Source: an uncultured Verrucomicrobiae bacterium
Lineage (GTDB): Bacteria > Verrucomicrobiota > Verrucomicrobiia > Limisphaerales > Palsa-1400
Direction: 5' to 3'
Assembly (NCBI GenBank): GCA_963707025.1
Contig: CAVPOM010000006.1
Location: forward strand, 1-64,000
Length of the DNA stretch: 64,000 nucleotides
Both the position numbers and the translations under genes were made by a program. Shown piece by piece: positions 18,555 to 62,973 of this stretch (position 1 is its first letter; each line of letters begins with the position of its first letter). The notes under the pieces are model-generated. The model did no database searches. It saw nothing but the letters and a program-made list of their open reading frames with translations, and was not told the DNA's origin.

Positions 18555-19014
18555 GTTTTTAAGCAGTTAAAGTTTAAGTCTAATCAGCCTCGTCTTGAGG
18601 GAGAGGAACTTTCTTCAGTTCCGCCGGCTCCGCCGCACGCAGATAATCTGACAAAACGCTAACACGGCAATATAAGAATGTCAAATGTTGTTGGAATTCC
18701 TTAAGTGCTTGCCATACAATCGCATACAGCCAATATCACCCGGAATCGGGACGGCTCTCAGCAAAAGTATTAGCAATGCTAATTAAAAGTGCGGCCCGTT
18801 TTAAGCCCCGTCATAACGGTGGATTCGGCCTTTGCGGCCAGGAAAGGCTTGGGACTCGTTTGGTTTAACGCACCCCAATGTCCTCTTGTGCGCTGGACCA
18901 AACGCGACTTTATTCCGCGGCGCGACTTGTCCGACCAAGCCGCGCTGATACCCGGGCGGCCTGCCAGTGTGGGGGGCGACTTGTTGGACGCCCACTCATG
19001 CAGGCAGGGTGAGG

Positions 19015-19103
19015 TGCATTACAGCCGTTACACCGTTACAGTTGTTGATTATCAACGGTTTACGAAAACCGCCCCCGTTACACCCCGTTACACCCCGTTA
19101 CAT
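19015..19103 (-). repeat. Six-box GTAAC element, copy A
   Basis: Reverse complement aligns with copies B and C with one gap. Confidence 0.8.
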
Positions 19104-19290
19104 CCAGATTACCGTCCTTCATCAGATCGGTCAGGTCTTCGATGAGTTGCTCCCTATCGTTGGCCCCTTCGATGCTCTCCATTATCGTCAGCTCGCTTAG
19201 CACAGACAAAAATCGCTTGAACCGCCGGGACTCGATTTGCGCCAAAAAAACTGTTGTTTCAGGCTGTCTCGTGTGGCACCATAACTTTGC

Positions 19291-19464
19291 ATGAAAAACG
19301 TGTTCGTAAGCAACCACACCAACGGGATAGACTGGAAAGCGGAAGCGCGGAAGCTTCGGCGGACCGGGAAGCGCATTACCGCTTCGCGAACGGCTTCGAT
19401 GCGTCTCTTGTTGGCCACCGGCATGTACACGGCCAAGGGCAAGTTGAAGCCCCAATTCCGCTGA
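19291..19464 (+). CDS. 57-aa basic protein, putative antitoxin (not in the ORF track)
   Basis: MKNVFVSNHTNGIDWKAEARKLRRTGKRITASRTASMRLLLATGMYTAKGKLKPQFR; TGA overlaps the next ATG (TGATG). Confidence 0.6.
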   Translation: MKNVFVSNHTNGIDWKAEARKLRRTGKRITASRTASMRLLLATGMYTAKGKLKPQFR

Positions 19465-20036
19465 TGCTTTCCCACTCGCTTGCCATCGGCTATCACGGTT
19501 GCGACCGAAGTTTGGCCGGGCGCATTGTCGCCGGGCAAACAGAACTCAAACCAAGTGAAAATGCCTGGGACTGGCTTGGGCACGGCATTTACCTTTGGGA
19601 GGACAGTCCCGCCAGGGCCTTGCGTTGGGCAGAGGCCGAGGCTGGACGAACCGCAAGCAAGATCAATTCTCCCGCCGTCTTGGGCGCGGTGGTTGACTTG
19701 GGGAACTGCCTGAATCTCGCTGACACCGAAGCGTTGAGCCTGGTAAAAAACGCCCATCAAACTTATCTCGAAGCCTGTGCCGCCTCGGGCTTTTCCCCGG
19801 CGGAAAATCACGGCGCAGACCTGCAAATCCGCCGTCTTGACTGCGTTGTGATTGAAACGCTCCACCACTTGCGCCAGAAGGAAGGCGAAGAACCGTTCGA
19901 CACGGCGCGCGGCTTTTTCTTAGAGGGACGCCCCTTGTATCCGGCCGCCGGCTTCCGCGAACTGGATCACATTCAAATCTGCGTTCGTTCGTCCAAACAG
20001 ATCATCGGTTATTTCCTACCGCGCCGAAATGTTTGA
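19464..20036 (+). CDS. Putative ADP-ribosyltransferase-fold protein (toxin candidate)
   Basis: GYHG, WLGHGIYLWE and HIQICVR motifs. Confidence 0.6.
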   Translation: MLSHSLAIGYHGCDRSLAGRIVAGQTELKPSENAWDWLGHGIYLWEDSPARALRWAEAEAGRTASKINSPAVLGAVVDLGNCLNLADTEALSLVKNAHQTYLEACAASGFSPAENHGADLQIRRLDCVVIETLHHLRQKEGEEPFDTARGFFLEGRPLYPAAGFRELDHIQICVRSSKQIIGYFLPRRNV

Positions 20037-20289
20037 CGGTTCGACAGGCGCTGGATCAGAGCGGACGGGCCCGCGCCAGAAGCGCGCTGGCGAGGGCGGA
20101 ACCCTCAGCGCTCTGCGGTCAAACAACAAAAATAGGCGTTTATGCGGGAGCCGATTATGCAGGAAGAGTTTAAAAAGTGAGAACTGAAACCGGCTCCCTG
20201 CTTCCCTGCTCCTGCTCTTCAACCCGTGCGTAAGCGGATAAGCGGCGTCCCCCTATTCGCCTTGGGCGGGGCGTGATACAAACGCGGGC

Positions 20290-20625
20290 GTGAAGCAAAA
20301 CAGAGTTTCTGCGCGTCGCCGCGCGGCCCACACCGATGCCACCCAACGCGCTCAACTACTGGCAGCGTTTGATCGCAGCGGGTTGTCCGCCGCCGATTTT
20401 GCCCGTCAGCAGGGCCTTCATTACACCACCTTTTGCGGTTGGCGGCAGCGCCGGGATCAGGCCAAAGCCTCGCCCGCTTTTGTCCAAGTGGAGTTGGCCC
20501 CTCCTGTGGCGCCTGCGGAGTTGGTGCTGGAAATGGGCACCGTCCGGCTGCGTCTGGTGTCGGAAGCGCAATTGCCCCTGGCGGCGCGGCTGCTGCAACT
20601 CCTCCAGGAAGGCCCGCGATGCTGA
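20290..20625 (+). CDS. tnpA: IS66 accessory protein TnpA
   Basis: SGLSAADFARQQGL...W...FVQVEL. Confidence 0.85.
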   Translation: MKQNRVSARRRAAHTDATQRAQLLAAFDRSGLSAADFARQQGLHYTTFCGWRQRRDQAKASPAFVQVELAPPVAPAELVLEMGTVRLRLVSEAQLPLAARLLQLLQEGPRC

Positions 20626-20975
20626 GTTTTCACGCGCATCTCAAGGTGTTCCTGGCGACCGCGCCGTGCGATTTGCGGATGAACTTCAACGGGCTGTGGG
20701 CGGCGGCGCAGGAACGGCTGGGGGAAGATCCCAAAGGCGGGGCGTTGTTTGTCTTTGGCAACCGGCGGCACAACCGGATCAAGATTCTTTATTTTGACGG
20801 CACGGGCGTCTGCGTGCTGTCCAAGCGGCTGGAAGAGGGCACGTTTCACTGGCCGCAGAGCGCGGGCGCGCCCGGGGCCAAACTGCGCCTGGCCCCGCAA
20901 GCCTTGCAGCTGCTACTGGACGGGGTGGATTTGAAGGACGGGGCGCGCCGGGCCTGGTATGAGACCACTGCGTAA
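20619..20975 (+). CDS. tnpB: IS66 accessory protein TnpB
   Basis: DLRMNFNGL, FVFGNRR, KRLEEGTFHWP. Confidence 0.92.
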   Translation: MLSFHAHLKVFLATAPCDLRMNFNGLWAAAQERLGEDPKGGALFVFGNRRHNRIKILYFDGTGVCVLSKRLEEGTFHWPQSAGAPGAKLRLAPQALQLLLDGVDLKDGARRAWYETTA

Positions 20976-21051
20976 AGCATAAGAACATTTTTTCATAAAA
21001 TCGCAAAAAAGATTGAACATCTTGAGCGACGGATCGTCTGATTGACAGACG

Positions 21052-22578
21052 ATGACTCTGGCGGAACTACAAACTCAATTCAACCGGCTGCAAGAGCAAG
21101 TCTCCTCCTTGCAGCAGGCGTTGGAACAGGCCCAGCGCGAGAACACGGTCTTGCGCCAAAAGCTCGATGCGTTGGCCCGGCGGTTCTTTGGCAAAAAGAG
21201 CGAGCAGTTGAATGCCGCCCAACTGGAGTTGCTCCTCCAGGGGTTGGTGGAGAATGTCGTCTCCGAAGAAAAGAAGGAGCCGCCGGCGCGGCCCGCGCCG
21301 CGCCCTGTTTTTGCCACTTCCAAACGTATTCGCACCCCGGACCACCTGGAAGTGGTGCGCCAAGTGATCGAACCGGAGCTGGTGCGGGCCGAGCCCAACC
21401 AATGGAAAAAGATCGGTGAGGAAATCAGCCGTCGGCTGGATTATCAACCGGGCCAGTTCTTCTGGCAGGAAACGGTGCGGCCCAAGTATGTGCGCCTGGG
21501 CCGGCGGGAACTGCCGCCGGTGATCGCGCCCGCCCCGGCCCAAGTGGCCGAGCATGGCCTGGCCGCGCCCGGCTTGCTGGCGCAAATCCTGGTGAGCAAG
21601 TATTGTGATCATCTGCCCTTCTACCGGCAGGAACAGATTTTTCGGCAACGGCACGATGTGTTCATCAGCCGGCAACAGATGGTGCAATGGACCGCGCAGA
21701 GCGTGCGTCTGCTCTCGGCCATCCGCGATGACCTCAAAAAGCAACTGCGTCAGAGCCGTTATGTGCAGGTGGATGAAACGCCGGTGCGCTATCAAGACCC
21801 CGACCTGCCAGGCCGCTGCGGCCAGGGTTATCTGTGGGCGGCCTCGGTGCCCGGCCAGGGCGTGGTCTATGAATGGCACGCCAGCCGGGCGGCCCGTTGT
21901 TTGGACTCCCTCTTAGGTTCAGGCTACCAGGGCAAGCTGCAAAGCGACGGCTATAGCGCCTATCCCGCCTTTGTCAAAAACAAGGCGGTGGAACTGTTCG
22001 GCTGCTGGGCCCATGCCCGGCGTGGATTTTTTGAGGCGCAGGCACAAGCGCCCCAAGTGGCGGGCTGGTTTTTAAACCAGATCGGCCAGATGTATGGCTG
22101 GGAGAGACAACTGCGGTTGAGCCGGGCCGGGCCGGCCTTGCGCCAAGCCCATCGTCGCGCCCACAGCCGCATGGTGGTGGAACGCTTTCATCGCGCACTG
22201 CACCGGCTGCGCCCGCGCTACCTGCCGCAAAGCCCGCTGGGTCAGGCCATCAGCTATACCTTGAACCAATGGCCGACCTTGGCACGGTTCCTGGACCACG
22301 GCGAAGTGGAGATCGATAATAACCTGGTGGAAAACGCCATCCGGCCCACCGCCATCGGCAAAAAGAACTGGCTCTTCTTCGGCTCCGAAGAAGCCGGCCA
22401 GCGCAGCGCCGTCCTTTACACCCTGATCGAAAACTGCCGACGCCAGGGCGTGGAACCCTATACCTACCTCAAAGACGTGCTGGAGCGCCTGCCCACCACG
22501 ACCAACCAGGAAATCGGCCAACTGACGCCGCTCAACTGGAAGAAAGCCCGTCAACAGCAAGACAGGCTGGCCGCCTGA
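21052..22578 (+). CDS. tnpC: IS66 transposase TnpC
   Basis: FGKKSE, HLPFYRQ, DETP, CWAHARR, IDNNLVENAIR. Confidence 0.95.
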   Translation: MTLAELQTQFNRLQEQVSSLQQALEQAQRENTVLRQKLDALARRFFGKKSEQLNAAQLELLLQGLVENVVSEEKKEPPARPAPRPVFATSKRIRTPDHLEVVRQVIEPELVRAEPNQWKKIGEEISRRLDYQPGQFFWQETVRPKYVRLGRRELPPVIAPAPAQVAEHGLAAPGLLAQILVSKYCDHLPFYRQEQIFRQRHDVFISRQQMVQWTAQSVRLLSAIRDDLKKQLRQSRYVQVDETPVRYQDPDLPGRCGQGYLWAASVPGQGVVYEWHASRAARCLDSLLGSGYQGKLQSDGYSAYPAFVKNKAVELFGCWAHARRGFFEAQAQAPQVAGWFLNQIGQMYGWERQLRLSRAGPALRQAHRRAHSRMVVERFHRALHRLRPRYLPQSPLGQAISYTLNQWPTLARFLDHGEVEIDNNLVENAIRPTAIGKKNWLFFGSEEAGQRSAVLYTLIENCRRQGVEPYTYLKDVLERLPTTTNQEIGQLTPLNWKKARQQQDRLAA

Positions 22579-22665
22579 AATACAACGGCCAGCGGCAAGC
22601 AACTTCCTTGCCTGCCTACCGGGGTTGCCGCTTATCCGCTTACACCCGTGCGTCCCTTTCCCCCG

Positions 22666-23694
22666 TCAAGGAGCCACTTCCAGCCGAAAGAAAAGTTGGT
22701 TCCAATCGGCCACGTTAAAGTATTGCGGATACGTCATGGTGGAATTGGTGGCTGCGAAAGTCGAGCCGTAGTTGGTGAACGGGCCGTTCAAATTCGTGGA
22801 GATTTGCAACCGGTAATTCGTGCCGAGATAAAGATCGGCAAACGACGGAACGACTGCTTTCAATATCGAGATTTGTGGCGTGGATTCGTAGGCATACAAC
22901 TGTCCCACTTCGTTTGATGAAAGCGCTCGGTTGTAGATTCGCACATCGTCAATGAGACCGTTAAATACGTTCCATATTTGGCTGCTCCACTGCGACGCTC
23001 CAATCCGCCAAAACTGATTGTTGAGGTAATTCAGGGTTGAATCGTAGTATCCAACATACGGACTCGCAACGACTCCGGAAAGCGTTGAGATACCTGAATC
23101 CTGGGCGCTCAACACCCCATCAACATATACCAGAATTGTCCCATTCCCGTCCACTACGACAGCGCAGGAATGCCAACGATTATCATCTACGACCGTCTTG
23201 CTGTCGTTGAGAAAACTGAGAGGGTACGATCGATTGTCAAAAAACAGTTGGTTTGTTCCGTCCTGTAGAGATGAAAACCACAGGCTCGCAAAATAGTAAT
23301 TGTCCCCCGTCGGCGAGTATCCATCCGGCCCAGAAAAATCCGTGATTATTTGAAGTGCGGGGCCAAATTGTGGGTTGTAATTGGTTCTCGCCAAAAACCA
23401 GACTGAGATCGTCATCGCGTCATGCGGATTTCCCAAAGCGATTGAACTCCCAATGTCAACGTGGCTGTTGGTACCGTTGAAGGAATAACAAGCGTTGGAA
23501 ACCCCGAAACGGTCAGGCGCCAGCGTGGTGTTTATGTTGGTACCATTGTGTCCATTGCCGCTGGCGTCATTCGCATTGCCGTTGAACGGGTAATAGGCCA
23601 CAAGACCGTTGGTGAGGAAGGATTGGGCTTGGGTCTGAGCCGCCAGAGCCAAGCTAATTGTGAAGATTCCGAATAATGATGTTGTTGTTTTCAT
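22666..23694 (-). CDS. Exported LamG-like jellyroll protein
   Basis: GLVAYYPFNGNANDASGNG; FNGLIDDVRIYNRALS. Confidence 0.88.
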   Translation of the reverse strand: MKTTTSLFGIFTISLALAAQTQAQSFLTNGLVAYYPFNGNANDASGNGHNGTNINTTLAPDRFGVSNACYSFNGTNSHVDIGSSIALGNPHDAMTISVWFLARTNYNPQFGPALQIITDFSGPDGYSPTGDNYYFASLWFSSLQDGTNQLFFDNRSYPLSFLNDSKTVVDDNRWHSCAVVVDGNGTILVYVDGVLSAQDSGISTLSGVVASPYVGYYDSTLNYLNNQFWRIGASQWSSQIWNVFNGLIDDVRIYNRALSSNEVGQLYAYESTPQISILKAVVPSFADLYLGTNYRLQISTNLNGPFTNYGSTFAATNSTMTYPQYFNVADWNQLFFRLEVAP

Positions 23695-23704
23695 AAAGTG
23701 CTTT

Positions 23705-25154
23705 CACACCCGTCTCATAAGGGGAAAAGTCTGGTGCTGACCTGTTCATTTGCAAGGGTTTAATTGGTCTTCGGGGTAAAATGAGATTTTGATTTTTCCG
23801 AGTTTGGCTTTTGGGTTTGGTATGCGCCTGTTTGGGCGCGTGTGCTGTCCCATAGCTTTATTGGAAGCCGGGGAAATACGCCTGCTCGGGCCGCGCCAAG
23901 TGGCGAAAGCTGCCGCCTGCTGTCCCATAGCACGCCAGCAAATTGAGCAGATCATATTTCTCCCAGAGCGCCGCCCGCAAAATCGTGAACAGCCGGGTGA
24001 AGCTGTGCGCCCAGTTGGAGAGGTGACTGAGGTAGCGCAACAGCACGTAGGTCAACAGCGCCGTCCACACCTGCCAGCGCACGGCGTTGGCGTTGTGGCC
24101 CAGAAAATCCGCCAACTGCAAGGTCTGCTTGATTTGTTTGAAGAAGACTTCGATCTGCCAGCGGCAGCGGTAAAGGTCGGCCACGCTGCGCGGACTCCAC
24201 TCCAGGTTGTTGGTCAGGAAGGTCATTTCCCGTTCCTCTCCATCAATCTCGACCAGCGCCACCACCCGGCGCATCAACTCCGGCGCGGGTTTGTTCTCGT
24301 TGCTCAGGACGATCACTTCGTCGCGCAAAATCTTCGGGTCTCTGGAGGCGGGCATTTTCCGCACCACCTCATAGCCCATGTTCTCCTTGGCCCGCGTCAC
24401 CCAAAAGACCCCGCGCCCGTCCAAATCCCGCAAGTGGCCGAAGTCCACATAACCCTTGTCGAACAAGGCGATTTCGCCGCTCTTCAAGTCGGCGCACAGT
24501 TCCCGCGCCCGTCGGTTGTCGTGCTCGGCGGCAGTGTCCACAATGACAAAACCGGGCAAAAGATTCTGCAGATTCAACCGCATATGGGTTTTGGCGGCGG
24601 CCTTGCGCCGGCGGTGCTTGGCCCAGTCCAGGCAGTTGGCCACCAGTTCCATGGTCGTGCTATCAATCACATGGATGGGCATCTTGAAACGGAAGGCGGG
24701 GCCACGGCGCTGGCCCGCGGCAAAGCCGGGCGTCTGTGCTTTCAAATGCTCCAGGACCCGCCAGAAGAGTTGTTCGGCCATCTGGGCCGGACGCTCCCGG
24801 TTGGCGTGGGAGAGGCCGTTGCGGCTGGGGGCGCTGGCGCCGCGCAAAGTGGACAGCGGCCCGGAATGCAATTGCAGCGAGTCGCACAGATCGTTGAGTC
24901 CGATGCAATGGGTGAGTTGCGCGTCCAGCAAACTGACCGTGTGACTCCACGGACTGAAGGTGCGCGACTTATCCAGACCCCGGTCTCCCGCGCTATTTTG
25001 GAGACTTCATGCGCAGGAATGAGATTGCAAATCTGGCGCAAAACGTTAAACCGGGACCGTGTTGGTTTGATTTTTTTGTTTTTCATGCCTGCCTTGTGGC
25101 AGGTTCAAATGGTCAAGCCAACACTTTTTTCCAATTTCCTGTGGGATGGCTGTG
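23705..25154 (-). mobile_element. IS4-family element, copy 1 (transposase has a 1-bp deletion near 24977)
   Basis: Ends CACACCCGTCTCA / TGGGATGGCTGTG; 9-bp TSD AAGTGCTTT; nearly identical to 37655-39105. Confidence 0.95.
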
Positions 25155-25369
25155 AAGTGCTTTCATTCCGTCGGGAAGCCAACAGGTCCATTTCCATCCC
25201 GGCAACCCTCAATCCCGAACGGAATTGGACACCTGCCCCCGGCAACTAAACCAGACCTCTGGAGATGCGGACACTTTGAACCTTCTCCCGATAAAGTGCA
25301 AGCGAAATCCACGAAACTAGGCGTTACCGACATGGCAGCATTTTGCGGTTCGTGCTCTCTGGTATGGTC

Positions 25370-25591
25370 ATGTCCGGTATTCAGAAGCACCGCCGCCTTT
25401 TGGGTGAGGCAATCCGCGCCAAGCGGAAAGAGGCTGGATTCAGCCAGGAGAAGTTGGCAGAGAAAGCCGGCCTCTCCACCGTGTTTATTAGCCGAATCGA
25501 GCGGGGCGTCGAATCACCAGTGGTGGATAATCTCGTGAAAATCGCGAGGGCTTTGGGCGTGCGGGTCCGGGACCTGGTTGCCGGATTTTAA
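25370..25591 (+). CDS. XRE-family HTH regulator
   Basis: GFSQEKLAEKAGLSTVFISRIERG. Confidence 0.88.
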   Translation: MSGIQKHRRLLGEAIRAKRKEAGFSQEKLAEKAGLSTVFISRIERGVESPVVDNLVKIARALGVRVRDLVAGF

Positions 25592-25836
25592 TGCGGGTCG
25601 CTGAGAGGCTCTACCGGAGTACCAAGCGACCGCGCTTTGTCCGCGCATTCTTGGCAGACATGAGAACTCTGGGTGAACTGCTTATCTCCCTGAGGCGTGT
25701 GCTGTATTATTGGCCTCTTAATCTTTGCAACTGCAATTCTGTCGGGATGTTTGTAGCAAAATAGGTCCATCGTTTTTACCTTTCTTGGTTGGTTGGCCCA
25801 ATAATGCCAGCCGTTCAGGGCGTCGTCAAACCGCAA
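25588..25836 (-). CDS. Small hypothetical protein (start uncertain)
   Basis: CYKH...CQEC motifs; low GC. Confidence 0.35.
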   Translation of the reverse strand: MRFDDALNGWHYWANQPRKVKTMDLFCYKHPDRIAVAKIKRPIIQHTPQGDKQFTQSSHVCQECADKARSLGTPVEPLSDPH

Positions 25837-26210
25837 TTAAAACGGATTCCCCGGCGCTTCCATAAAATCGCCTTGGAAATCTGTTTCTGTCGCCGGCCCC
25901 ACATCAATGTTGTCAGCTTCCGCTGGCCGGGATTCCTGCCAACGCGATTCGGCCGCCTTATCGAACGCCAAGTCTGTGAATTTTCGCAACCAAGGAGGTG
26001 TAAACAAATTACGGCAGCAACCTGACTGGTTCATTTCGCGGCTGGCGGCGTTGCTTCTCAGTCGAAGATCCACGAGGGATATTCTCCTTCGTCGCGCCTT
26101 GCCAGCCGGGAAAATCCCTGCGTCATCTTGCGCCCGTAATTTATTTGCGCCTCCTGCGCCGAAAGCGCCGCGATCATGTTCTTTTTCCCCGCCTCATCCA
26201 GAACCGAGTA

Positions 26211-26297
26211 AACCGCGAAATACTCAAAATACGCGAACCCAGAAAGTATCGGCGGAAAAACTTTGCAGTTTTCGCGTGTTTCGCGTGTTTCGCGGTT
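26211..26297. repeat. Inverted repeat with 9-bp internal periodicity downstream of gspK
   Basis: AACCGCGAAATACTCAAAATACGCGAA pairs with TTCGCGTGTTTCGCGTGTTTCGCGGTT (23/27). Confidence 0.75.
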
Positions 26298-26402
26298 AAG
26301 AGAATTTCTTCCGGCCTGCGCAACAACAATCGCCGGTTCTTCCCGAAGAGGATGTCAGAAATAACTGAGGTTGATCGGCGCAGACCGGCGCCGTAAGCCG
26401 CT

Positions 26403-34139: not shown

Positions 34140-34558
34140 TCCAACCCCCCGCCCAAGGACTCCTGCGCTCCACACCGTGCCCCAGCGCCGCAGGCCGGAC
34201 CTTGTTGAAGGAAGCGCGGGGTCGTTATCAACCAGTCGGGTGGGCACTCTAGATGGCCGAAATGGTGTGCCAATATGGCACAATATCGCCCTCGAATTAA
34301 TTCTTAAGTTGCTTATTTACAATAAGTTACAAACATTTAATGGCATCCAACAAAATGGGTTCGTTTGGCAAAAACACCATAAATGCCGGCGCTGATCTGG
34401 ATTGGAACAGGCTCCGAAAAATGGCGCGCCCACCCAATGTGACTGGCGCCCCGCGGCTCCCCTGTTGCCTCGTCTTTCACGGGGATGAGTTAAACATAGT
34501 TTCTAACTCCTGTCCATAAAAATCTTTACCGGGCGCACGCTCCATTCTAACGTTCCGC

Positions 34559-34969
34559 ATGGCCAGGAAAACCCCGACTGTGGAAGAACAGGCCGTTCAC
34601 GAGGGCGCGGACGCAAAACCAACGCCGGTTGCGCGCCGCCCCTCCTCCCTGGTGGACACCCGCGTCATCTATTGCGGCGACAACCTGGAGCAACTCGCCA
34701 AACTGCCCGACGCCTGCGTTGACCTCATCTACATTGACCCGCCCTTCAACTCCAATCGCAACTACGAAGTCTTCTGGGGCGAGACCAAGGAAAAGCGTTC
34801 CTTTGACGACCGCCACGCCAGCACCCAGGCCTACATTGAATTCATGCGCCCGCGCTGCATGAAACTCGTCCGCGTCCTTAAAAAGACCGGCAGCTTTTAC
34901 TACCACTGCGACTGGCACGCCAGCCACTACGTCAAAGTCATGCTCGACCAGATTTTCGGCGACAATTAA
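34559..34969 (+). pseudogene. Truncated amino (N6A/N4C) DNA methyltransferase
   Basis: GDNLE, IYIDPPF; ends at DQIFGDN without the SAM-binding motif. Confidence 0.8.
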
Positions 34970-34978
34970 AATTGTAAA

Positions 34979-37025
34979 ATGAATTACGTCGAGAGAATCA
35001 ATTCGTTGCTGCGCCCAAATCCAAGCGGAAAAATCCGCGTGCTGGATTTGTTTGCTGGTTGCGGCGGATTGGCGTTGGGTTTTGAAGCGCAAGGATTTGA
35101 AACGCTAGGCTTTGAGCAAGATGCCGACGCCTGTGAAACATACCGCCGAAATTTAAAGGGCGACTGCCAGCAAATTACGCTGACTCCGGAAACGCAATTC
35201 CCAAAAGCTGACGTAATTATTGGCGGGCCGCCGTGTCAGCCCTTCAGCGTTGGTGGACATCAAATGGGGCTGACAGATTCACGAGACGGATTTCCGATTT
35301 TCATTTCCGCCGTGAAGCAGGTTCAGCCGGAGATTTGGGTTTTTGAAAATGTGCGCGGAGTTCTTTACAGTAACCGCTGGTATTTCGAGCAGATACTCAC
35401 CGCTTTGAAGGCATTGAATTATGTCATCGAGGTGCGGCTCCTCAACGCTGTGAACTACGGTGTGCCGCAGAATCGCGAGCGGGTGATCGTTGTCGGCCAT
35501 CGCGGCGAATTCCAGTTTTTCGATGGGGAGTCCAATCGGGTCACGGCAGGAATAGCATTGGGAGAATCCATGCGACAAGCCCCCCCGGAATCCAAATTCC
35601 TCACGCCGAGCATGGATGAATACGTTGCAAAATATGAACGGGCTTCGTTTTGCATCCGGCCGCGCGACCTTTATCCGGACCAACCGGCCCGCACGGTGAC
35701 CTGCCGGAATCTTGCGGGCGCGACCGGCGACATGCATCGCATTCGTTTGGCTGATGGTCGCCGCCGCCGCCTTTTTGTCCGCGAGGCCGCCAGATTACAA
35801 AGCTTCCCCGATTGGTTTGAGTTTTGCGGTGGCGAAACGAGCCAGTTCAACCAGATTGGCAATGCCGTTCCGCCATTGCTGGCGTGGCATCTTGCCGGCT
35901 CGGTCAAAAAGTATCTGTCCACCACCAAACGGCTCACATCGGGTGAAATCCTCTACCGAAATCTTCCTGACCAGTTTGCTTTGCCGCTGGAATTCAAGGA
36001 GTCCAATGAAATGAAAATTCCAGCATTTGTCACCAACATGGAGAAGCCAGCCAAGCTTGTGAAACTGATCAATGAGGCGCTGCTGGTCCTTTCCAGGCTG
36101 GGCATTCCTCTGGATGACCTGAAACCACGAGAACTGGAAAAGATGGCGATGGCCTTCCTTGCGGTGGCTGATGTGAAGCGCAGCGCCGATTGGTCGAAAG
36201 CGCGGATTCGTGAAGGAAAAGAAACCCTCAAATCGCGGGACATCATCGCTTACCTCAATCAACACTTTGAGGAAAGGATTTCGATGGGTTCTTACGACGA
36301 CATTCGCCGTAAGGATTTAAAACTGCCTGTCGTGGCGGGAATCATCATTGCCAGCGCCAACAAGCCAAACGCCGCCCGCAACGATCCGACACGCGGCTTT
36401 TCTCTGTCTCCCGAATACGTCGAACTCATCCAACGGTTCGGCCAGCCGGATTGGGCGCAAGCGATAGAGGAGTTTATGGCGGACAGACCCACCCTGGCCG
36501 AACGCTTGGACGCCGCGCGTCAGACTCGAGATTGTTCCAATCAAGCTGCCCGATGGTAAAACGATTCAATTCAGCCCCGGCGAACACAACTTGTTGCAAA
36601 AAGCGATTATCGAACAATTCCTGCCACGATACGGACATGGCTCGGAAGTTTTGTATGTCGGTGACACTGCGAAGAAATTTCTGGTTCGGGAGGAAGCAAA
36701 ATTACGCGCCCTGAAATTTTTTGAACTCGAGCATGGAGAACTCCCAGACATCGTTGCATATTCAGCCCAAAAGAACTGGTTGTTTCTCGTTGAAGCAGTG
36801 CATAGCTCCGGGCCAATCTCTCCGCTCCGTCTTCTCGAATTAAAACGGCTGGCCCACGAATGCACGGCAGAAATCGTTTTCGTTACGGCCTTCCTGACGC
36901 GAGACACTTTCCGAAAATTCGCGCCGGAGATTGCGTGGGAAACTGAAGTCTGGATTGCCGATGCGCCGGACCATTTGGTGCATTTCGATGGTGATAAATT
37001 CCTCGGTCCCTACAAATCGAAATGA
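34979..37025 (+). CDS. C5-cytosine methyltransferase fused to a BsuBI/PstI-family restriction endonuclease (frameshift near 36524)
   Basis: DLFAGCGG, GGPPCQ, ENV, QIGNAVP; then EALLVL, SPGEHN, LPD, VEAV, IAWETEVW, HFDG. Confidence 0.85.
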
Positions 37026-37654
37026 GTCTCCCCTAATTGATTGAAAGGCCAGGCCATGGAGGGGGTCCGCCATTTTGTCACTATGACGACGCGCAGGCCC
37101 GCCCGAAAACGCCTCCTCTGCCGCCGTGCCCCGCCCATACTTTTGCGGCCCGCCGCCCGCCCAATTTTGCCCCCCATGAGCGTTTTTTGGAACAGAAGCA
37201 ATCAAAGCAAACGAAGAGGGCAATCCCTTCGTTGCCGTTCCCTTCTATTCGGATTCGGGTGGGCTGAGCCTCCATCCTCGCTTCAATTCCGCATTCCCTT
37301 GACAATCATTGCGGGGGGCTGGGAAAGGTGGTAAAAGGGAGGCATGAATTGTGGCCTTTGTGGTGCTGATCGCCCGTTGCAAAAATCCCTTATTATCCCG
37401 GAATTTTGTTACAAGCCAATTTATGACCCAATCCACCGTATCCAGGTTATTTCATCTGACCCTGCGAAGCCTGATAGGCTCTGGCAAAAAGGGTTACGGG
37501 AAAAGCTTTTATGTGCCTTGTGTGAACAGAAACTCTCGCCGTGGGAGACTTACGCCAAGCGTGTATTTGATGGCGTCGGAGTCAATGTCGTGCGAGACGG
37601 GAAAATGCTGGTCATTTCAAATATCGAATATGCTAAATTTCGGCTATTTCAACT

Positions 37655-39105
37655 CACACCCGTCTCATAAGGGGAAAAGTCTGGTGCTGACCTGTTCATT
37701 TGCAAGGGTTTAATTGGTCTTCGGGGTAAAATGAGATTTTGATTTTTCCGAGTTTGGCTTTTGGGTGTGGTATGCGCCTGTTTGGGCGCGTGTGCTGTCC
37801 CATAGCTTTATTGGAAGCCGGGGAAATACGCCTGCTCGGGCCGCGCCAAGTGGCGAAAGCTGCCGCCTGCTGTCCCATAGCACGCCAGCAAATTGAGCAG
37901 ATCATATTTCTCCCAGAGCGCCGCCCGCAAAATCGTGAACAGCCGGGTGAAGCTGTGCGCCCAGTTGGAGAGGTGACTGAGGTAGCGCAACAGCACGTAG
38001 GTCAACAGCGCCGTCCACACCTGCCAGCGCACGGCGTTGGCGTTGTGGCCCAGAAAATCCGCCAACTGCAAGGTCTGCTTGATTTGTTTGAAGAAGACTT
38101 CGATCTGCCAGCGGCAGCGGTAAAGGTCGGCCACGCTGCGCGGACTCCACTCCAGGTTGTTGGTCAGGAAGGTCATTTCCCGTTCCTCTCCATCAATCTC
38201 GACCAGCGCCACCACCCGGCGCATCAACTCCGGCGCGGGTTTGTTCTCGTTGCTCAGGACGATCACTTCGTCGCGCAAAATCTTCGGGTCTCTGGAGGCG
38301 GGCATTTTCCGCACCACCTCATAGCCCATGTTCTCCTTGGCCCGCGTCACCCAAAAGACCCCGCGCCCGTCCAAATCCCGCAAGTGGCCGAAGTCCACAT
38401 AACCCTTGTCGAACAAGGCGATTTCGCCGCTCTTCAAGTCGGCGCACAGTTCCCGCGCCCGTCGGTTGTCGTGCTCGGCGGCAGTGTCCACAATGACAAA
38501 ACCGGGCAAAAGATTCTGCAGATTCAACCGCATATGGGTTTTGGCGGCGGCCTTGCGCCGGCGGTGCTTGGCCCAGTCCAGGCAGTTGGCCACCAGTTCC
38601 ATGGTCGTGCTATCAATCACATGGATGGGCATCTTGAAACGGAAGGCGGGGCCACGGCGCTGGCCCGCGGCAAAGCCGGGCGTCTGTGCTTTCAAATGCT
38701 CCAGGACCCGCCAGAAGAGTTGTTCGGCCATCTGGGCCGGACGCTCCCGGTTGGCGTGGGAGAGGCCGTTGCGGCTGGGGGCGCTGGCGCCGCGCAAAGT
38801 GGACAGCGGCCCGGAATGCAATTGCAGCGAGTCGCACAGATCGTTGAGTCCGATGCAATGGGTGAGTTGCGCGTCCAGCAAACTGACCGTGTGACTCCAC
38901 GGACTGAAGGTGCGCGACTTATCCAGAGCCCCGGTCTCCCGCGCTATTTTGGAGACTTCATGCGCAGGAATGAGATTGCAAATCTGGCGCAAAACGTTAA
39001 ACCGGGACCGTGTTGGTTTGATTTTTTTGTTTTTCATGCCTGCCTTGTGGCAGGTTCAAATGGTCAAGCCAACACTTTTTTCCAATTTCCTGTGGGATGG
39101 CTGTG
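37655..39105 (-). mobile_element. IS4-family element, copy 2 (intact)
   Basis: Same ends as copy 1; TSD ATTTCAACT/AATTCAACT (8/9). Confidence 0.95.
37808..39037 (-). CDS. IS4-family DDE transposase
   Basis: IDST, FDKGY, YRCRWQIEVFFKQIK (YREK motif). Confidence 0.95.
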   Translation of the reverse strand: MKNKKIKPTRSRFNVLRQICNLIPAHEVSKIARETGALDKSRTFSPWSHTVSLLDAQLTHCIGLNDLCDSLQLHSGPLSTLRGASAPSRNGLSHANRERPAQMAEQLFWRVLEHLKAQTPGFAAGQRRGPAFRFKMPIHVIDSTTMELVANCLDWAKHRRRKAAAKTHMRLNLQNLLPGFVIVDTAAEHDNRRARELCADLKSGEIALFDKGYVDFGHLRDLDGRGVFWVTRAKENMGYEVVRKMPASRDPKILRDEVIVLSNENKPAPELMRRVVALVEIDGEEREMTFLTNNLEWSPRSVADLYRCRWQIEVFFKQIKQTLQLADFLGHNANAVRWQVWTALLTYVLLRYLSHLSNWAHSFTRLFTILRAALWEKYDLLNLLACYGTAGGSFRHLARPEQAYFPGFQ

Positions 39106-39546
39106 AATTCAACTTTCTCTTCTTTGGCGCTTGGGAGTTAGTAAAGCCGATTTCTTTAAGGAGGTAAATCTTGGTGCAAAACACGAAAAGGTGCTGCGGT
39201 TAGCCCTGATGAGTGAAGACCCATTAGACCCTTTGCAATACCCGTGTGCTTTGACCGGAGTTTTGATCGGCGGCACGTTTAATCCAGACGGTATTTTACC
39301 GCCAAGTCGCGTGCGCGGTGCCTACGATCACGGTTATTGTGTCTTGATCGGCGGGTTTCTTTACCATTTCATTGTAATGAGCCATCCCCCCCCGAAGGAG
39401 TTCGCGGGCGTTTGCGTATCCAAGGCGGGACAAATGCGAATACTTGTTCAAGAAGTTCGAGACATCCCTTTTCTCGCTGAAATCGTTCACGAGTTTGGAA
39501 CAGCGATTAGGGATAGGGAGCGGCGCGGGACTTCTTAAACAGAACC

Positions 39547-39614
39547 GTGAAAGTGAAAGTGAAAGGGTCGGTCCTGAAAGGGTAGTGAAAGGGTCGGTCC
39601 TAGAAAGATGACAT
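39547..39614 (+). repeat. Stuttered RAYT-end-like sequence
   Basis: GTGAAA GTGAAA GTGAAAGGGTCGGTCCT GAAAGGGTA GTGAAAGGGTCGGTCCTAGAAAGATGACAT. Confidence 0.65.
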
Positions 39615-39889
39615 GTTTCGTTCTTCGTTCTCTGCCTCCTCCCTCATAAAAAAGTCCCGCAAAATTGCATATTGTTGTTTTCTGGCCGCATGGTTGAGCT
39701 AGTTCGGTTCGGAACCGGCCGAATCGAAGTATAATCGTCCGGCAATGCAGTTCAAGCTCATTTGCCGCAAGGGAACGAAGCGCAACCAGCCGCAACCGAA
39801 TCCGGAATTGCAGAATGGAACAACACTATAAAGTGCGTCAGAGGCGCGGGCAGATCACGCATCCGCCTTCGCCAAGCCAGCGGGCGTAA

Positions 39890-39979
39890 ATGTAACGCAA
39901 GGTAACGGGGAGGTAACGGCCCCAAAAGCCTCAAGTCCCTCAGTTTCAACAGGTCTAACGGGGTACCAGGTGTAGCGCA
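39890..39979 (+). repeat. Six-box GTAAC element, copy B
   Basis: 72/90 identical to copy C without gaps. Confidence 0.85.
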
Positions 39980-40082
39980 TACAAGTGTCCATTCTCTCTT
40001 TTTAAACTTTCGCTTTTTTTCTCGCTCAGGGCAAGTGTCGGTCCCTGATTCCCGCCCAAGTCGAGGATGGCGCACGGCAAGA

Positions 40083-40130: not shown

Positions 40131-40180
40131 AAAGATCTGCATTTCGGTGGTGCAATAGGAAGCTATTTATCATTTCTCAT

Positions 40181-57210: not shown

Positions 57211-57473
57211 AGGCCTAATATATGGCAATGAACCGGCTTTAGACAATGCACAATCCACGCCGGAATTGACCGCTGATGGATGTAGATTCACCTATCTGCG
57301 GGCAATTCCGGATTCGTTTGCGGTGGGCTGCGCTGTCTCCGCGCAACCCTGGGCTGCAAGCTTCAAACCCGTTGGGATTGGAAAACCAGCTTCAGGCCAT
57401 TTTAGCTTTGACATAACGGGAGGGGTGTGGGATTTTTATTCGTCGTCAGTCAAAGTTGTAAAACCTATTTTAG

Positions 57474-59585
57474 TTGCTTGTGAAAAAAACGTTCCACGGC
57501 GCAGCCGTTTTGCTGCTGTTCTCAAACCTCAATCTTCAACTTTCCACCGCCCACGCCCAGGGCACGGCGTTCACCTATCAAGGCCGCATGCTGGACAACG
57601 GCACGAACTTCAACGGCGCGGGCCAGTTCAAGTTCGCGCTGGTCAGCAGCACCAACCTCAGCAGCCAAGCCACCGCCACAGCCAATATGGGCGGCAGCAG
57701 TCCCTTTGAATTCGTCGAGAGTTATACCATCGTCTCTGGCGGCAGCGGTTATACCACCGCGCCGACGGTGACCGTTGCCGGCCCCGGCGAGTCCGGCTCG
57801 ACGGCTCTCGCCACGGCGACCATCAGCGGCGGCACGGTGACGGCCATCAACGTCATCAGTCCTGGTTCGGGTTACAGCGGCACGCCCATGGTGACGATTG
57901 CCGCGCCCCCACCGGACATCACCTACACGACCTATTGGAGCAATGACGGCACGAGTGTCAACGGCAGCCAACCAACTGCCACCGTGAGTGTGGGCGTCAG
58001 CGATGGGCTGTTCACCGTGGTTTTAGGTGACACCACCTTGGCGAACATGACGACCATTGACCCTTTATTGTTCAAGCAGTCGAACCTGCAATTGCAGATT
58101 TGGTTCAGCGATGGGGTGAATGGTTTTGCGATGCTGAATCCACTGCAAAATTTGACCCCGACGCCGTATGCGATTTATGCGGAAAACGCAAATGGTTTAT
58201 CGGCCTCCCAATTGACCAGCATTGGCAATACCAACGGAGGCTCGGGCAACTTCTTTGTCGGTCCATCGGGCAATCCGACGACGAGCGGCTTTTGGAACAC
58301 GGCCGATGGCGTTGGGGCGTTTGCAACCAACACGAGCGGGTCACTAGACACGGCCATTGGCTATCTGGCTCTTCAGGCCAACACGAGCGGCATCGATAAC
58401 ACGGCCATTGGAACACATGTGCTTCTCGCCAACACGAACGGCTCCGCAAACACGGCCATTGGCACTGGGGCGCTCATCGCCAACACGAGCGGCTTCAACA
58501 ACATCGCGCTGGGCTATCAGGCTGGCTATTTCATCACCACCGGCAGTTCCAACATTGACATCGGCAATAAGGGTCTTTCCACCGACACCAATATTATCCG
58601 CATCGGTAGCGTCCAGAGCCAGACGTTCATCGCGGGCGTCATCAACGGCAACGGCAGCGGGCTGACCAATCTCAATGGCGCGCAATTGACCGGCGTCATC
58701 ACCGGCAACGGGGGCGGGTTGACCAACATTCCTGCCAGCGCGGTTGTGCCTGCTCCCGCCGGCATGGCGCTGATTCCGGCGGGAACGTTCCCGATGGGGG
58801 ACACCCTGGATGGCGAGAGCGACGCCATCCCGACAAACATATATGTGTCGGCGTTTTACATGGACGTGAACCTGGTGAGCTATGCGCAATGGCAGTCGGT
58901 GTATTTTTGGGCCACGAACCACGGGTATGGCTTTGTGAATGCGGGTGCCGGGAAGGCGGCGAATCATCCGGTGCAGACAGTGGATTGGTATGACGCGGTG
59001 AAGTGGGGCAATGCGCGCTCGCAGCAGACGGGTTTGACGCCGGTGTATTACACGGATTCGAACATGACGGTGGTTTATACGAATGGGGAGACGGATGCCG
59101 TCTATGTGAAGTGGTTGGCCAATGGGTATCGGTTGCCGACGGAAGCGGAGTGGGAAAAGGCGGCGCGGGGCGGGTTGAGCGGACAGCGGTTTCCGTGGGG
59201 CAACGTCATCACGGAAAACCTGGCCAACTACAACGGAGATACCGCCGATTTTAGCTATGATTTGGGGCCGAACGGATACAACGCAGCCTTTACGAACGGA
59301 TTGGTGCAACCCTACACGAGTCCGGTGGGATATTTTGCGGCGAACGGGTATGGACTGTATGACATGTCTGGGAATGTTTTTGAGTGGTGTTGGGATTGGT
59401 ATGGAACGCCGTATGGACAACCGACCAACACGAATCCAACCGGACCGGGAACCGGGAGCAACCGCGTGTTGCGCGGTGGCCATTGGCTCGACCCCCCCAA
59501 CAACGCGCGATGCGCGGATCGCCTCGACACCATCCCGCTCAACGTCAGCAACTACCTCGGGTTTCGTTGTGTGAGGGGGCTTTAG
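57474..59585 (+). CDS. Exported protein with C-terminal FGE-sulfatase (CLec-fold) domain
   Basis: AQGTAFTYQG, NTAIG repeats, YRLPTEAEWE, GLYDMSGNVFEW, RGG...GFRC. Confidence 0.9.
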   Translation: MLVKKTFHGAAVLLLFSNLNLQLSTAHAQGTAFTYQGRMLDNGTNFNGAGQFKFALVSSTNLSSQATATANMGGSSPFEFVESYTIVSGGSGYTTAPTVTVAGPGESGSTALATATISGGTVTAINVISPGSGYSGTPMVTIAAPPPDITYTTYWSNDGTSVNGSQPTATVSVGVSDGLFTVVLGDTTLANMTTIDPLLFKQSNLQLQIWFSDGVNGFAMLNPLQNLTPTPYAIYAENANGLSASQLTSIGNTNGGSGNFFVGPSGNPTTSGFWNTADGVGAFATNTSGSLDTAIGYLALQANTSGIDNTAIGTHVLLANTNGSANTAIGTGALIANTSGFNNIALGYQAGYFITTGSSNIDIGNKGLSTDTNIIRIGSVQSQTFIAGVINGNGSGLTNLNGAQLTGVITGNGGGLTNIPASAVVPAPAGMALIPAGTFPMGDTLDGESDAIPTNIYVSAFYMDVNLVSYAQWQSVYFWATNHGYGFVNAGAGKAANHPVQTVDWYDAVKWGNARSQQTGLTPVYYTDSNMTVVYTNGETDAVYVKWLANGYRLPTEAEWEKAARGGLSGQRFPWGNVITENLANYNGDTADFSYDLGPNGYNAAFTNGLVQPYTSPVGYFAANGYGLYDMSGNVFEWCWDWYGTPYGQPTNTNPTGPGTGSNRVLRGGHWLDPPNNARCADRLDTIPLNVSNYLGFRCVRGL

Positions 59586-59658
59586 TTTTTGTGCTTTTAC
59601 ACTTTAACCCTTTTGAACGAGTGAGTGCGTTTTGATCAAAGTCAAAGGTCAAAGGGTC

Positions 59659-60702
59659 AAAGGGGTCAAACCATATATTTGCACTGTTTTGCGCTTGCCA
59701 CGCTCAGTGCATTGCGGCACGATGGGCCGATGCCACGGCAATTGCGCATCGAGTATCCCGGGGCGATCTATCATGTCCTGAGCCGGGGAAATCGTCGGGA
59801 AGCCATCTTCGTTGATGATGGCGACTGCCATGATTTTATCAAAACCCTGGCCGAGGCTTGCCAGAAAACCGGCTTCCAAATTCACGCCTTTTGCCTGATG
59901 AAAAACCATTTTCATTTGGTGGTCGAAACGCCGCAAGGCAATCTGGTGGCCGGAATGCGCTGGCTCTTGAGCACCTATTCCAACCGGTTCAATCACCGGC
60001 ATGATCGGTGCGGCCATGTTTTCAGCGGGCGCTACAAAGCACTGGTGGTGGATGGCAGCGGCCGCGGGTATTTGCGCACCGTTTGCGATTACACTCACCT
60101 CAACCCGGTCCGGGCCGGATTATTGCCCGCGGCCAGCCGGCTGCTGGAGTATCCCTGGAGCAGTTTTGGGTTTCTATTTGACGGAGGTGAAACATCGGCC
60201 CGGGTGGCTGCGGGTGGACCGGTTGCTCGGCGAGCATGGCATTGCCAGGGACACGGCCTCCGGGCGGCGGGAATTTGAGGGCCGGATGGAAAGCCGCCGC
60301 GCCGGGGAGGGAGAGGCCGGCCCGTGGAAGGGGATGCGGCGCGGATGGTGCTTTGGAACAGCCGATTTCAAGAAAGGACTGCTGGAAAGGCTGCAGGGAC
60401 ACTTGGGCCCAAACCACTCCGGCAGGCTGCGCCAGGAGGCGGGCCAGGCGGGCGCGGAGGCGCTTATCTCCAAGGCCCTGAGGCGGCTGGGATGGAAAGA
60501 GGAGGAATTGGGCAAGCGGGCCAAAAGCGACCCGGGCAAAGTGAGGTTGGCGGCGCAATTGCGCCAGGAGACGACCCTGACCATCGGGCAGATCGCGCAG
60601 AGGTTGCACATGGGAACCCGCAACACCTTGGCGACAAACCTGCAAGGAAGAAAAGGCACGAACGGATGAACGGGATAGCGCAAATATGCGGTTTGACCCC
60701 TT
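59659..60702 (+). mobile_element. HUH/RAYT (Y1) element with 26-bp terminal inverted repeats
   Basis: AAGGGGTCAAACCATATATTTGCACT (59660-59685) versus reverse complement of 60677-60702, 23/26. Confidence 0.8.
59730..60669 (+). CDS. REP-associated tyrosine transposase-like protein with C-terminal HTH, frameshifted near 60172
   Basis: YHVLSRGNRR, MKNHFHL (HUH), GRYK, YTHLNP, YPWSS. Confidence 0.9.
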
Positions 60703-60846
60703 CCCCGCCAGGAGACGACCCTGACCATCGGGCAGATCGCGCAGAGGTTGCGCATGGGAACCCGCAACACTTTGGCGACAAACCTGCAAGGAAGAAAAGG
60801 CAGGAACGGAGGAACGGGATAGTGCAATTATGCGGTTTGACCCTTT
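60562..60846 (+). repeat. Tandem duplication (period 144 bp) of the transposase 3' end and right TIR
   Basis: 60562-60702 repeated at 60706-60846 with few mismatches. Confidence 0.92.
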
Positions 60847-60850
60847 CGAC

Positions 60851-61573
60851 ATGAACACATCCCATAATTATAAGCTGGCTGTTGTTGTCCCCCTTGTGGC
60901 AATTTGCACATTCATTCCATTCCGTACAAAGGCGCAAGGGAGTTTCCAAAACCTTGATTTTGAGAGCGCCAACCCAGGCACGTTAACGCCAAATCCAACC
61001 GGGCCACCTTATGCTCTCAATGTTCCGGTAGCAAATGCACTTCCGTCGTGGAGTGTATATTACGGCGACATCCAGCAAACGGTTGTCAATGTTAACGATC
61101 CATCTTTGGGGGCCGCAGCCGTCGCGCTCATTGGCCCACAAGACAACCCAATTGATGGAAACTACAGCGTTTTGCTCCAACCTGGCGGTTCCGTAAATTA
61201 CATCAGCGCCTCAATTGCTCAGGATGGCACGATTCCAGTAGGAACGGAAACCTTGCTTTTTAGGGCGTGGCAACCGATGTCCGCGCTGCCGTTTTCCGTC
61301 TCCTTCGCTGGCAACAGTCTTTCGCCCGTCGAGATTTCGTCAGGCCAAAGCCCATTGGGACAAGGCTATAATGTTTATGCCGCCGCAATAGGTGCTTTCG
61401 CGGGGCAAAATGGACAACTGGAGTTCACAGTGAACGGCGAAAACTATAACAGTGTTTTGCTCGACGATATCGCCTTTTCCCCAAACACCGTGCCCGAACC
61501 CCGCACGCTGGCGCTTCTTGTCATGGGTGGGGTGGCGCTGGCCGTGCGCCGCTGGCGCGCCAAGGCTTCATGA
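60851..61573 (+). CDS. PEP-CTERM exported protein
   Basis: FQNLDFE; VPEPRTLALLVMGGVALAVRRWR. Confidence 0.9.
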   Translation: MNTSHNYKLAVVVPLVAICTFIPFRTKAQGSFQNLDFESANPGTLTPNPTGPPYALNVPVANALPSWSVYYGDIQQTVVNVNDPSLGAAAVALIGPQDNPIDGNYSVLLQPGGSVNYISASIAQDGTIPVGTETLLFRAWQPMSALPFSVSFAGNSLSPVEISSGQSPLGQGYNVYAAAIGAFAGQNGQLEFTVNGENYNSVLLDDIAFSPNTVPEPRTLALLVMGGVALAVRRWRAKAS

Positions 61574-61667
61574 GAACGTAAATGGGTCACCTTCCACTTC
61601 CACCCCCTTCAGACTAAGTATCTCCAGGTCGTAGGAGATCCGTTTGTGATTAAATAGTGAAATTATT

Positions 61668-62384
61668 ATGAAGATTAACACAATAGCACTTCTCCTAATC
61701 TCGGCGACAGTCGAGGATGGCTTTTCGCAAGAAGCGTTCCAGAACCTAAATTTCGAGGCTGCTGATGTTGCTGGTTACGCTCCAAACAGTTCCACGGTTC
61801 CGACCAGCAGCGCATTTCCCGGTTGGCAAGCGATTTATGGCGCGAATCCGCCATCTGCCCAGGTTTGGTATGACGGTCTAAGTATTGGCGGTCCAATGAT
61901 TTCGATTTTGGACAACAAGGCAGGGTCGCCGATCCAGGGAAATTATAGTGCCGATCTCTTTGCGGCAGTTGTAGGTACGACTACCTACAGTGTAACTCTG
62001 AGCCAGACTGGCGTAGTTCCCGCAAGCACAGAATCCATAGAGATGGATGCCAATCAGGCGGCGTCATCTTCATTTGTTGTGACGCTTGGAGGTGAACCCG
62101 TCAACATGGTGCCGTTGCAAAGGTTTGCCAATTACACGTTGTGGGGCGGCGATGCCTCAGCGTTTGCAGGCCAAGACGTGGCATTGAGCATTACCGAGCT
62201 GCCGCCCGCAAATCAAGAATATTCGCCCAGCCTGCTTGAGTTGGATAACATCACTTTTTCCCAAACGACGGTCACACCAGAACCTGGCACCCTGTCGCTC
62301 CTTGTTGTGGGCGCCACGGCATTTGCTGTGCGTTCGTGGTGGAAGCGCGTCAAGGCTTCCCGGCAGAAGCCCAACAAGGCATGA
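61668..62384 (+). CDS. PEP-CTERM exported protein, paralog of the preceding gene
   Basis: FQNLNFE, PIQGNYS, LDNITFS, TPEPGTLSLL. Confidence 0.9.
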   Translation: MKINTIALLLISATVEDGFSQEAFQNLNFEAADVAGYAPNSSTVPTSSAFPGWQAIYGANPPSAQVWYDGLSIGGPMISILDNKAGSPIQGNYSADLFAAVVGTTTYSVTLSQTGVVPASTESIEMDANQAASSSFVVTLGGEPVNMVPLQRFANYTLWGGDASAFAGQDVALSITELPPANQEYSPSLLELDNITFSQTTVTPEPGTLSLLVVGATAFAVRSWWKRVKASRQKPNKA

Positions 62385-62531
62385 GTTTATGGCCTCTCCT
62401 GGTCCACTAGGCAACCAATAGCATGGCACTTGGCACCTATTGGAACGGCGCCAAATGAGCTTCGCGTTACTTACCTGCCCTGGCTCAATGGGGAGAGTTT
62501 TCACTTATCATTCCGAACGCCTCAACACATC

Positions 62532-62611
62532 AAAGGGGTCATCATATATTTGCGCTGTTCGCCCTGTTTTGCGCTTGCCACCCTCTGTTCTTAGCGGCAC
62601 GATGGACCGAT
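62532..62611 (+). repeat. Orphan copy of the RAYT left end and leader
   Basis: Matches 59659-59731 (AAAGGGGTCA..CATATATTTGC..CTGTTTTGCGCTTGCCA..GCGGCACGATGG.CCGAT). Confidence 0.8.
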
Positions 62612-62912: not shown

Positions 62913-62973
62913 GCAATGCCCCCTTTGGCGAGCGTGGGCCGTGACCGCTCCCAACCTCGCCAAAGGCCACGTT

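Follow-up and report, generated by a model that had tools for sequence, protein, structure and literature searches.

The 90-base repeat that occurs three times in the window (the whole 64,000-nucleotide stretch analysed here) is likely one arm, that is half, of an iteron origin that belongs to a solo DUF3631/RepAM protein, and its assignment to the DUF3631/RepAM family is in our judgement very likely. The array is a real feature, derived from a known helicase-origin pair and lying outside the AICE, satellite, IS91 and MITE families, and there is a fair chance that it represents a new class of element. The window contains:

19013..19103, minus strand: copy A, with six boxes, from the subfamily to which the array of the full DUF3631 gene belongs
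19081..19185, minus strand: tail of a DUF3631/RepAM helicase gene, truncated at its 5' side, 35 codons, 86% identical
18940..19012, minus strand: downstream segment common to A-type copies
18838..18856, minus strand: junction motif on the array side of island A, at its edge
18846..26370 (far edge approximate): island A, about 7.6 kb, with an IS66 element, a LamG-domain gene and a DDE_Tnp_1 IS
34150..39889: accessory DNA that flanks the multi-box end of copy B
39562..39605, plus strand: two RAYT-type (Y1) end motifs upstream of B, in the orientation of B
39890..39980, plus strand: copy B, a six-box direct-repeat array of the B/C subfamily with an IHF-like core and degenerate boxes 4-6
57292..63280: island C, 6.0 kb
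62533..62556, plus strand: RAYT-type left-end fragment
62727..62822, plus strand: charged open reading frame entering copy C
62823..62914, plus strand: copy C, a six-box array of the B/C subfamily

All three copies lie where a sequence-only reading of the window had placed them, and its description of them was reproduced: B and C are identical at 72 of 90 positions without gaps, and in the three copies the boxes follow one another at 10/10-11 bp and then, beyond a central core, at 8/9 bp. The RAYT-type ends that it had noted inward of B and C were recovered as well, two for B at 302 and 328 bp upstream and one for C at 290 bp, in the orientation of the array. A profile made from A, B and C (E<0.001) detected 51 copies at 43 loci of the 6.96-Mb genome, with the core ending in (T/G)CAA(C/T) in 50 of them, six boxes in 37 and inverted boxes in none, and a count of the GTAAC triplet gave 48 for the genome against 0 for the reversed-genome control. 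The claim that boxes are conserved while spacers drift extends to the whole set (box columns 94%, spacer columns 74%, p 6e-6, 51 copies). The core is TTGAT-like in 25/51 copies, with an exact CTTGAT in 7/51, and 24/51 match exactly what we take to be the IHF consensus, WATCAANNNNTTR. An RNA family, which the sequence-only reading had named as a way in which it could be wrong, was rejected, as the window has no Rfam match at the gathering threshold, and a phage origin was set aside after a single exact array pattern gave 0 matches to viral contigs.

B and C represent a divergent subfamily. A B/C-type pattern gave no match to metagenome contigs, so that no full gene could be attached to this subfamily; the frame that enters copy C is possibly a relic tail of another rep variant, for which no full gene was found. 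Further variants were seen, one with TAACGG-type boxes that the profile misses (G000 C6:391676-391740; L064, L079), and one with a longer, different core at which two direct boxes are still terminal (L058, L075, L105:4310-4420). In G015, about a dozen copies of a second array family are followed downstream by an end similar to that of an array-bearing MITE of the same genome. Arrays are also borne on tandem duplications; those at G000 C3:251691/252341 and C2:62211/62861 are unrelated and both have a period of exactly 650 bp, while six further tandems have periods of 99-217 bp.

The accessory DNA beside B is composed of a methylase fragment, a C5 methylase-BsuBI/PstI restriction module and a DDE_Tnp_1 IS. 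The restriction module (34963-37030) is 83-94% identical in three congeners and apparently moves alone, since the congener copies lie on contigs apart from those of the flanking genes. The DDE_Tnp_1 IS (37655-39105 and 23700-25150) has about 40 near-identical copies in the genome and was recently very active. Beyond B, AT-rich short repeats lie at 40167-40200 and a gene of the 23S rRNA intervening-sequence family at 41160-41534, inside the transketolase cluster. Island C holds a gene with an FGE-sulfatase domain, a Y1 transposase and two low-GC3 genes; its Y1/RAYT element (59660-60845), which carries a frameshift, has ends in inverted orientation, the 3' one being duplicated, and the RAYT-type fragment at 62533 is similar to this element's end.

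The earlier statement that no cognate protein is evident was wrong. Copy A overlaps a 35-codon DUF3631 tail, with boxes 1-2 within its last codons and the stop codon in box 3, and a full 467-aa gene at C6:380153-381556 terminates in the same array; its DUF3631 domain (PF12307, E 1e-23, above cut-off) was the sole one found in the genome, and no integrase was found at this gene. Upstream of the A-type copies runs a common reading frame whose end falls within the array, and DUF3631 tails of 25-94 codons lie at fourteen other places, copy A included. The suggestion of an orphan iteron origin was essentially right, and what had not been recognised as a described element belongs to the RepAM/DUF3631 family and resembles one arm of a satellite-type origin. 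The closest homologues of the protein are mostly labelled Verrucomicrobiota or Limisphaerales. DUF3631 corresponds to RepAM (PMC3218068), which is reported in a review (PMC2440964) to bind 8-bp repeats that lie 3' in its own gene, in a hairpin with a CTTGAT site, and to have no rolling-circle motifs; it is argued there to be a rolling-circle initiator without the usual motifs. In many solo DUF3631 genes (L023-L031, L034-L037, L039, L046, L059-L064), the likely -35 is overlapped by a palindrome, TTGGAC-N7-GTCCAA, that lies 35-50 bp ahead of the start codon and looks like an operator; half of it resembles RAYT-type ends, and the site possibly serves autorepression or a shared regulator.

The predicted structure of the 467-aa protein (pLDDT 81) aligns with MCM helicases (Z 17.0, rmsd 3.6, 238 residues), and also with SCCmec Cch (Z 12.5), PriRep1, a SaPI Rep (Z 11.0), and SaPIbov1 Rep (Z 10.2), the alignments with SaPI Reps extending to residue 376-381. 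The predicted C-terminal region has a winged-helix pattern, read from secondary structure, followed by a long helix. The cognate protein is thereby predicted to be an MCM-like helicase with a winged helix; its Walker A/B residues are invariant, and it is a candidate self-loading hexamer with predicted ATP-dependent unwinding. No nuclease or recombinase fold was found among the matches listed for the model, no HUH/Y2 match was obtained from Pfam or from the fold search, in which the C-terminal part was covered within the whole model, and a PDB sequence search gave nothing significant.

Homologues in related genomes keep the layout of the array, with boxes TGTAGC, TGTTGC or TGTAAC and a similar core, most of them having 4+2 boxes versus 3+3 in this genome. 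The six satellite-type DUF3631 origins (L044, L045, L049, L050, L067, L068; the L045 protein has Toprim and PriCT-2 domains) are palindromic and fold strongly, with z of -2.3 to -8.2; the A, B and C arrays form no hairpin (z 0 to +1.6), and the segment downstream of A is no more stably folded than its shuffles (z -0.8). As in the array, the spacing in the right arm of the satellite-type origins is box-35 bp-box-box. In a tree of 108 distinct proteins, the solo proteins form a clade of 35 tips (support 1.0) with 0 primase fusions and 29 arrays, its sister group of 28 tips has 3 arrays and the other 45 tips, outside the wider 63-tip clade, have 0, counts that come from an array model trained on about 15 positive loci and from sets containing near-duplicates. 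The direct-only array was found at 0/15 primase-fused loci with 3' room. Integrases were found at 3/5 proteobacterial loci tested versus none among 53 neighbours of 14 solo genes, and no primase was found among the scanned neighbours of solo genes, the scan covering 76 of 132 called ORFs at a cut-off of 1e-8 with an ORF caller that can miss low-GC genes.

Within the family genomes, to which our distribution figures refer, the array model has matches in 14 of 31, leaving 17 of 30 relatives without any, and copies are most numerous in G015 (103), G019 (83), G014 (73) and G043 (44). A DUF3631 match is present in each of the 8 relatives that reach 10 copies or more. Arrays occur in 11/17 rep-positive versus 2/13 rep-negative relatives (p 0.01, with kin that are not independent), and three genomes with a long primase-type fusion as best match have 0 arrays. 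The TAACGG-type variant may explain the rep-positive genomes G002, G009 and G017, in which no array was matched. Box sequence varies, hence BLAST with copy A matched just 1 of 40 relatives and a profile search was used instead.

The fixed polarity described for three copies holds genome-wide, and the random placement of further copies that would have spoken against it is not seen. Of the two 3-kb flanks, the one on the multi-box side has the lower GC at 40 of 43 loci (p 3e-8), and still at 39 when the first 500 bp of flank are skipped. At 35/43 loci this side lies farther from a codon-adapted single-copy gene (median 4,093 versus 432 bp), and it is more repetitive at 35 loci (of 43). Control repeats have no significant bias (REP-like 12/24, RAYT-end 24/45, hexamer-repeat 74/133, MITE-end 7/10). 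Among top-ranked matches in relatives, the same polarity was found at 28/40 in G015 (of 103), at 25/35 in G019 (of 83, with one two-array locus set aside) and at 4/4 in G014; it is weaker yet significant in G015 and G019, where 12/40 and 10/35 are opposite or tied. An array that is inverted upstream of its gene faces that gene nonetheless, and the GC step is reversed along with it in L061 and L063; L046 is an exception, its array facing away from its gene. Arrays lie at a median of 9% into the island (p 9e-11) and in the outer fifth at 29/43 loci, a clustering that persists even against a truncated uniform expectation (p 4e-9). The role as a recombination site is without support, as an integrase lies within 20 kb at just 3/43 loci in a genome-wide search that excluded serine recombinases. 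A tRNA-linked island was likewise rejected, with no tRNA in the window and a tRNA within 15 kb at 8/43 loci.

Synteny was examined at 14 loci, each against 3-5 congeners, and was resolved at 8, B being one of five loci that gave no clear comparison; fragmented congener assemblies favour the detection of simple sites. At the 8 resolved loci, the array faces the insert from a position 55-365 bp within one edge of the strain-specific DNA. Near-empty sites were found for A (47 bp in congener G003 versus 7.6 kb), for the locus of the full gene (90 bp versus 4.8 kb), for C5:201866 (0 and 150 bp versus 6.3 kb) and for C9:284528 (0 versus 4.8 kb). At C, C7:301925, C6:231565 and C5:318847 the congeners have different fillings, that of C in G003 being 3.1 kb without an array. 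C4:421542 is ambiguous or contrary, with DNA 390 bp from the multi-box side that is common to G003. Of the 10 places in the genome that match the junction motif of island A, 8 follow an array at a distance of 50-157 bp, and the 3' half of the motif is part of a REP-like arm also present at the empty site. Contigs from four sequencing runs mainly covered IS3 and offered no empty site, one of them having the same 217-bp tandem as C5.

The proposed nucleation of islands by the array goes beyond what the comparison shows. Four of the 8 resolved sites are variable in congeners too, which argues that the array is unnecessary for the hotspot; no array was found in the fillings scanned at three of these four (C, C7:301925 and C6:231565), and array-less islands are present in the same stretches. 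Cargo does not appear to be copied with the array, since the upstream DNA common to copies is at most about 480 bp (full genes excepted), no common far end of islands was found and modules of the cargo are present at other places where no array was seen next to them. Two further regions were noticed. A 5.8-kb module, in two copies that are 92% identical (L183:6083-12038, in G000 C7, and G000 C8:107375-113214) and present also in G004, encodes a 1,750-aa protein with a P-loop motif and a 258-aa partner, both without Pfam match, and looks like a mobile defence or toxin-antitoxin pair. The other (L017:1-7200, G000 C2:97,700-107,200) is integrase-linked, adjoins tRNA-Lys and a divergent tandem array pair, and encodes a 435-aa protein that is rolling-circle Rep-like by eye and has no Pfam match.

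How, then, could half an origin come to mark one edge of so many islands? Perhaps the half-origin spreads as orphan copies, unwinds in one direction and lets islands grow on one side, a complete scheme to which we give about an even chance. A few intact rep genes would supply the helicase in trans, and one hexamer would be bound on the six boxes; with no inverted set for a second hexamer, we infer that unwinding would proceed in one direction. This would release short origin-centred copies, whose reinsertion might occur by microhomology or aboard REP/Y1 and ISL3-type MITEs. It would also make the DNA on one side fragile, and incoming DNA would gather there, so that the island would build up on that side only. 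The Reps of SaPIs are described as self-loading hexamers that bind iterons via the winged helix, at origins that have two or more opposed iterons to either side and load two hexamers (PMC9371898; bioRxiv 10.64898/2026.10.17.759575). Since opposed iterons are conserved and needed in SaPIs, a direct-only array may not fire.

The polarity could instead be acquired passively, a full promoter-rep-array unit being inserted in an intergenic gap, where the costly gene is deleted or overwritten by IS or cargo and the array survives against the host gene. We regard this as unlikely, even though several observations fit it. In fact, C5:82735 has 460 bp of the full-gene upstream sequence and the array but no gene, and three more loci retain 140-230 bp of that sequence, as would be left by internal deletion of a full element; gene tails persist at the fourteen other places, the gene is on the multi-box side in both array orientations, and two full G015 elements are 85% identical from promoter to array. 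Yet the A-type copies are ragged at both ends, their 3' ends varying over about 90 bp, and all except the full gene start within 260 bp of the array, which favours copies that were born short. That truncation points fall within 260 of 1,380 bp and that tblastn found no 5' or internal rep gene fragments are hardly what gene decay would leave, rep coding sequence lies upstream in just 3/79 copies of relatives, truncated forms were themselves copied, and 50-100 full insertions per genome would be needed by a route that is unspecified. Other elements evidently help copies to move: a 0.9-kb duplicate, 99.9% identical, has its start precisely at a RAYT-type end, same-orientation RAYT-type ends lie upstream at 8/43 loci (about 6 independent) versus 0.3 expected, array-side junctions fall within a REP-like element arm at four loci, and ten G015 copies (L135-L144) lie inside a 330-bp MITE with terminal inverted repeats, several with 7-8 bp duplications and six in or against another array. 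We take this MITE to be ISL3-like from its end features. The genome has 10 matches to Y1 genes elsewhere; a scan for REP arms was noisier than its control (227 left arms versus 357) and was set aside. Inert arrays moved in this way by Y1/RAYT and ISL3-type MITEs into existing hotspots, with those pointing into core genes purged by selection, would also suit the other inserts found at 4 sites in congeners. Nonetheless, we consider this account improbable, because such ends are absent from most copies, orientation selection alone predicts arrays throughout islands rather than at their outer fifth, boxes are conserved over spacers and high copy number is confined to genomes with a DUF3631 gene.

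The array might also be a polar roadblock or insulator, whose bound protein blocks forks or transcription at island edges and which the host retains, or an integrase arm-type site, rather than an origin in use. The flanking host gene does point toward the array at 29/43 loci versus 44% expected (p 0.002), and the exact IHF consensus in nearly half of the copies would suit such a site; but orientation has no bias against local GC skew, taken for the replichore (23 versus 20), integrases and tRNAs are as scarce nearby as given above, the array is missing from over half of the family relatives and the Walker A/B residues of the cognate protein are invariant, and we hold this explanation to be very unlikely. 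One-directional unwinding with a one-sided hotspot is the reading that we favour over decay and hitchhiking, and it can operate together with the rival routes.

Taken further, the system may be an integrase-free parasite that seeds genomic islands from tens of copies in several related soil-type bacteria. More specifically, and only tentatively, as this goes somewhat beyond what we would call probable, it would be a minimal selfish element made of a self-loading MCM-like helicase and a one-armed origin, without integrase, transposase or primase, whose origin is copied by one-directional re-replication and whose copies seed one-sided landing zones, serving as dispersed island organisers in a Verrucomicrobiota lineage. 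Satellite-type helicase origins are known as one per element, two-armed and beside a primase and an integrase, whereas here one arm is loose at 50-100 copies per chromosome and tied to the location of foreign DNA. If the mechanism is true, it would be a way for DNA to move and for islands to form without a recombinase, and would offer a testable answer for hotspots at fixed sites without an att site. Even under the rival explanations, a predicted MCM-like helicase fold is assigned to RepAM/DUF3631, a natural series of matched box variants becomes available for studying iteron recognition, and the array provides a strand-oriented marker of island edges. Solo DUF3631 genes with dispersed arrays were not found described in the literature searched, subscription papers excluded.

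Among known systems, the array resembles REP/RAYT sequences (PMC3733652) and MITEs in being short, high-copy, intergenic and lineage-patchy. Unlike them, it is non-palindromic, lacks terminal inverted repeats of its own and is strongly polar, and it was not assigned to these families although some copies ride in MITEs. IS91/ISCR elements and Helitrons have a fixed end downstream of their gene, ragged 5' truncations and one-sided accessory DNA. The array shares with them an end downstream of a gene, the ragged 5' truncations and the one-sided accessory DNA; membership was rejected, as its 3' ends are ragged too and thus give no exact fixed end, and upstream cargo is not co-copied. In the Pfam and fold searches no HUH domain was seen in the cognate protein. 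To the SaPI/PICI Reps and SCCmec Cch the cognate protein is likened by its predicted AAA+ ring helicase fold with a C-terminal winged helix, and the origin by iterons of 6-7 bp that run from the last rep codons around an AT-richer core; the present element differs in having all boxes direct and no primase, integrase or phage-interference genes. The RepAM origins of pMEA300, pMEA100 and pSE211 belong to the same Pfam family and have short repeats at the rep 3' end (PMC2440964, PMC3218068), and the TTGAT-like core of half of our copies may recall theirs, exact CTTGAT being the minority noted above. The array differs from them in being without hairpin, inverted repeats, integrase, tRNA site or transfer gene, and in existing as tens of orphan copies, as opposed to one origin per element. 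As integrases are rare near it, no primase was found fused or among the scanned neighbours in its clade and its boxes are never opposed, it was placed outside both AICEs and phage satellites. The DUF3631 satellites of other bacteria, primase-fused or integrase-linked, have a homologous protein and the same right-arm layout but keep both arms.
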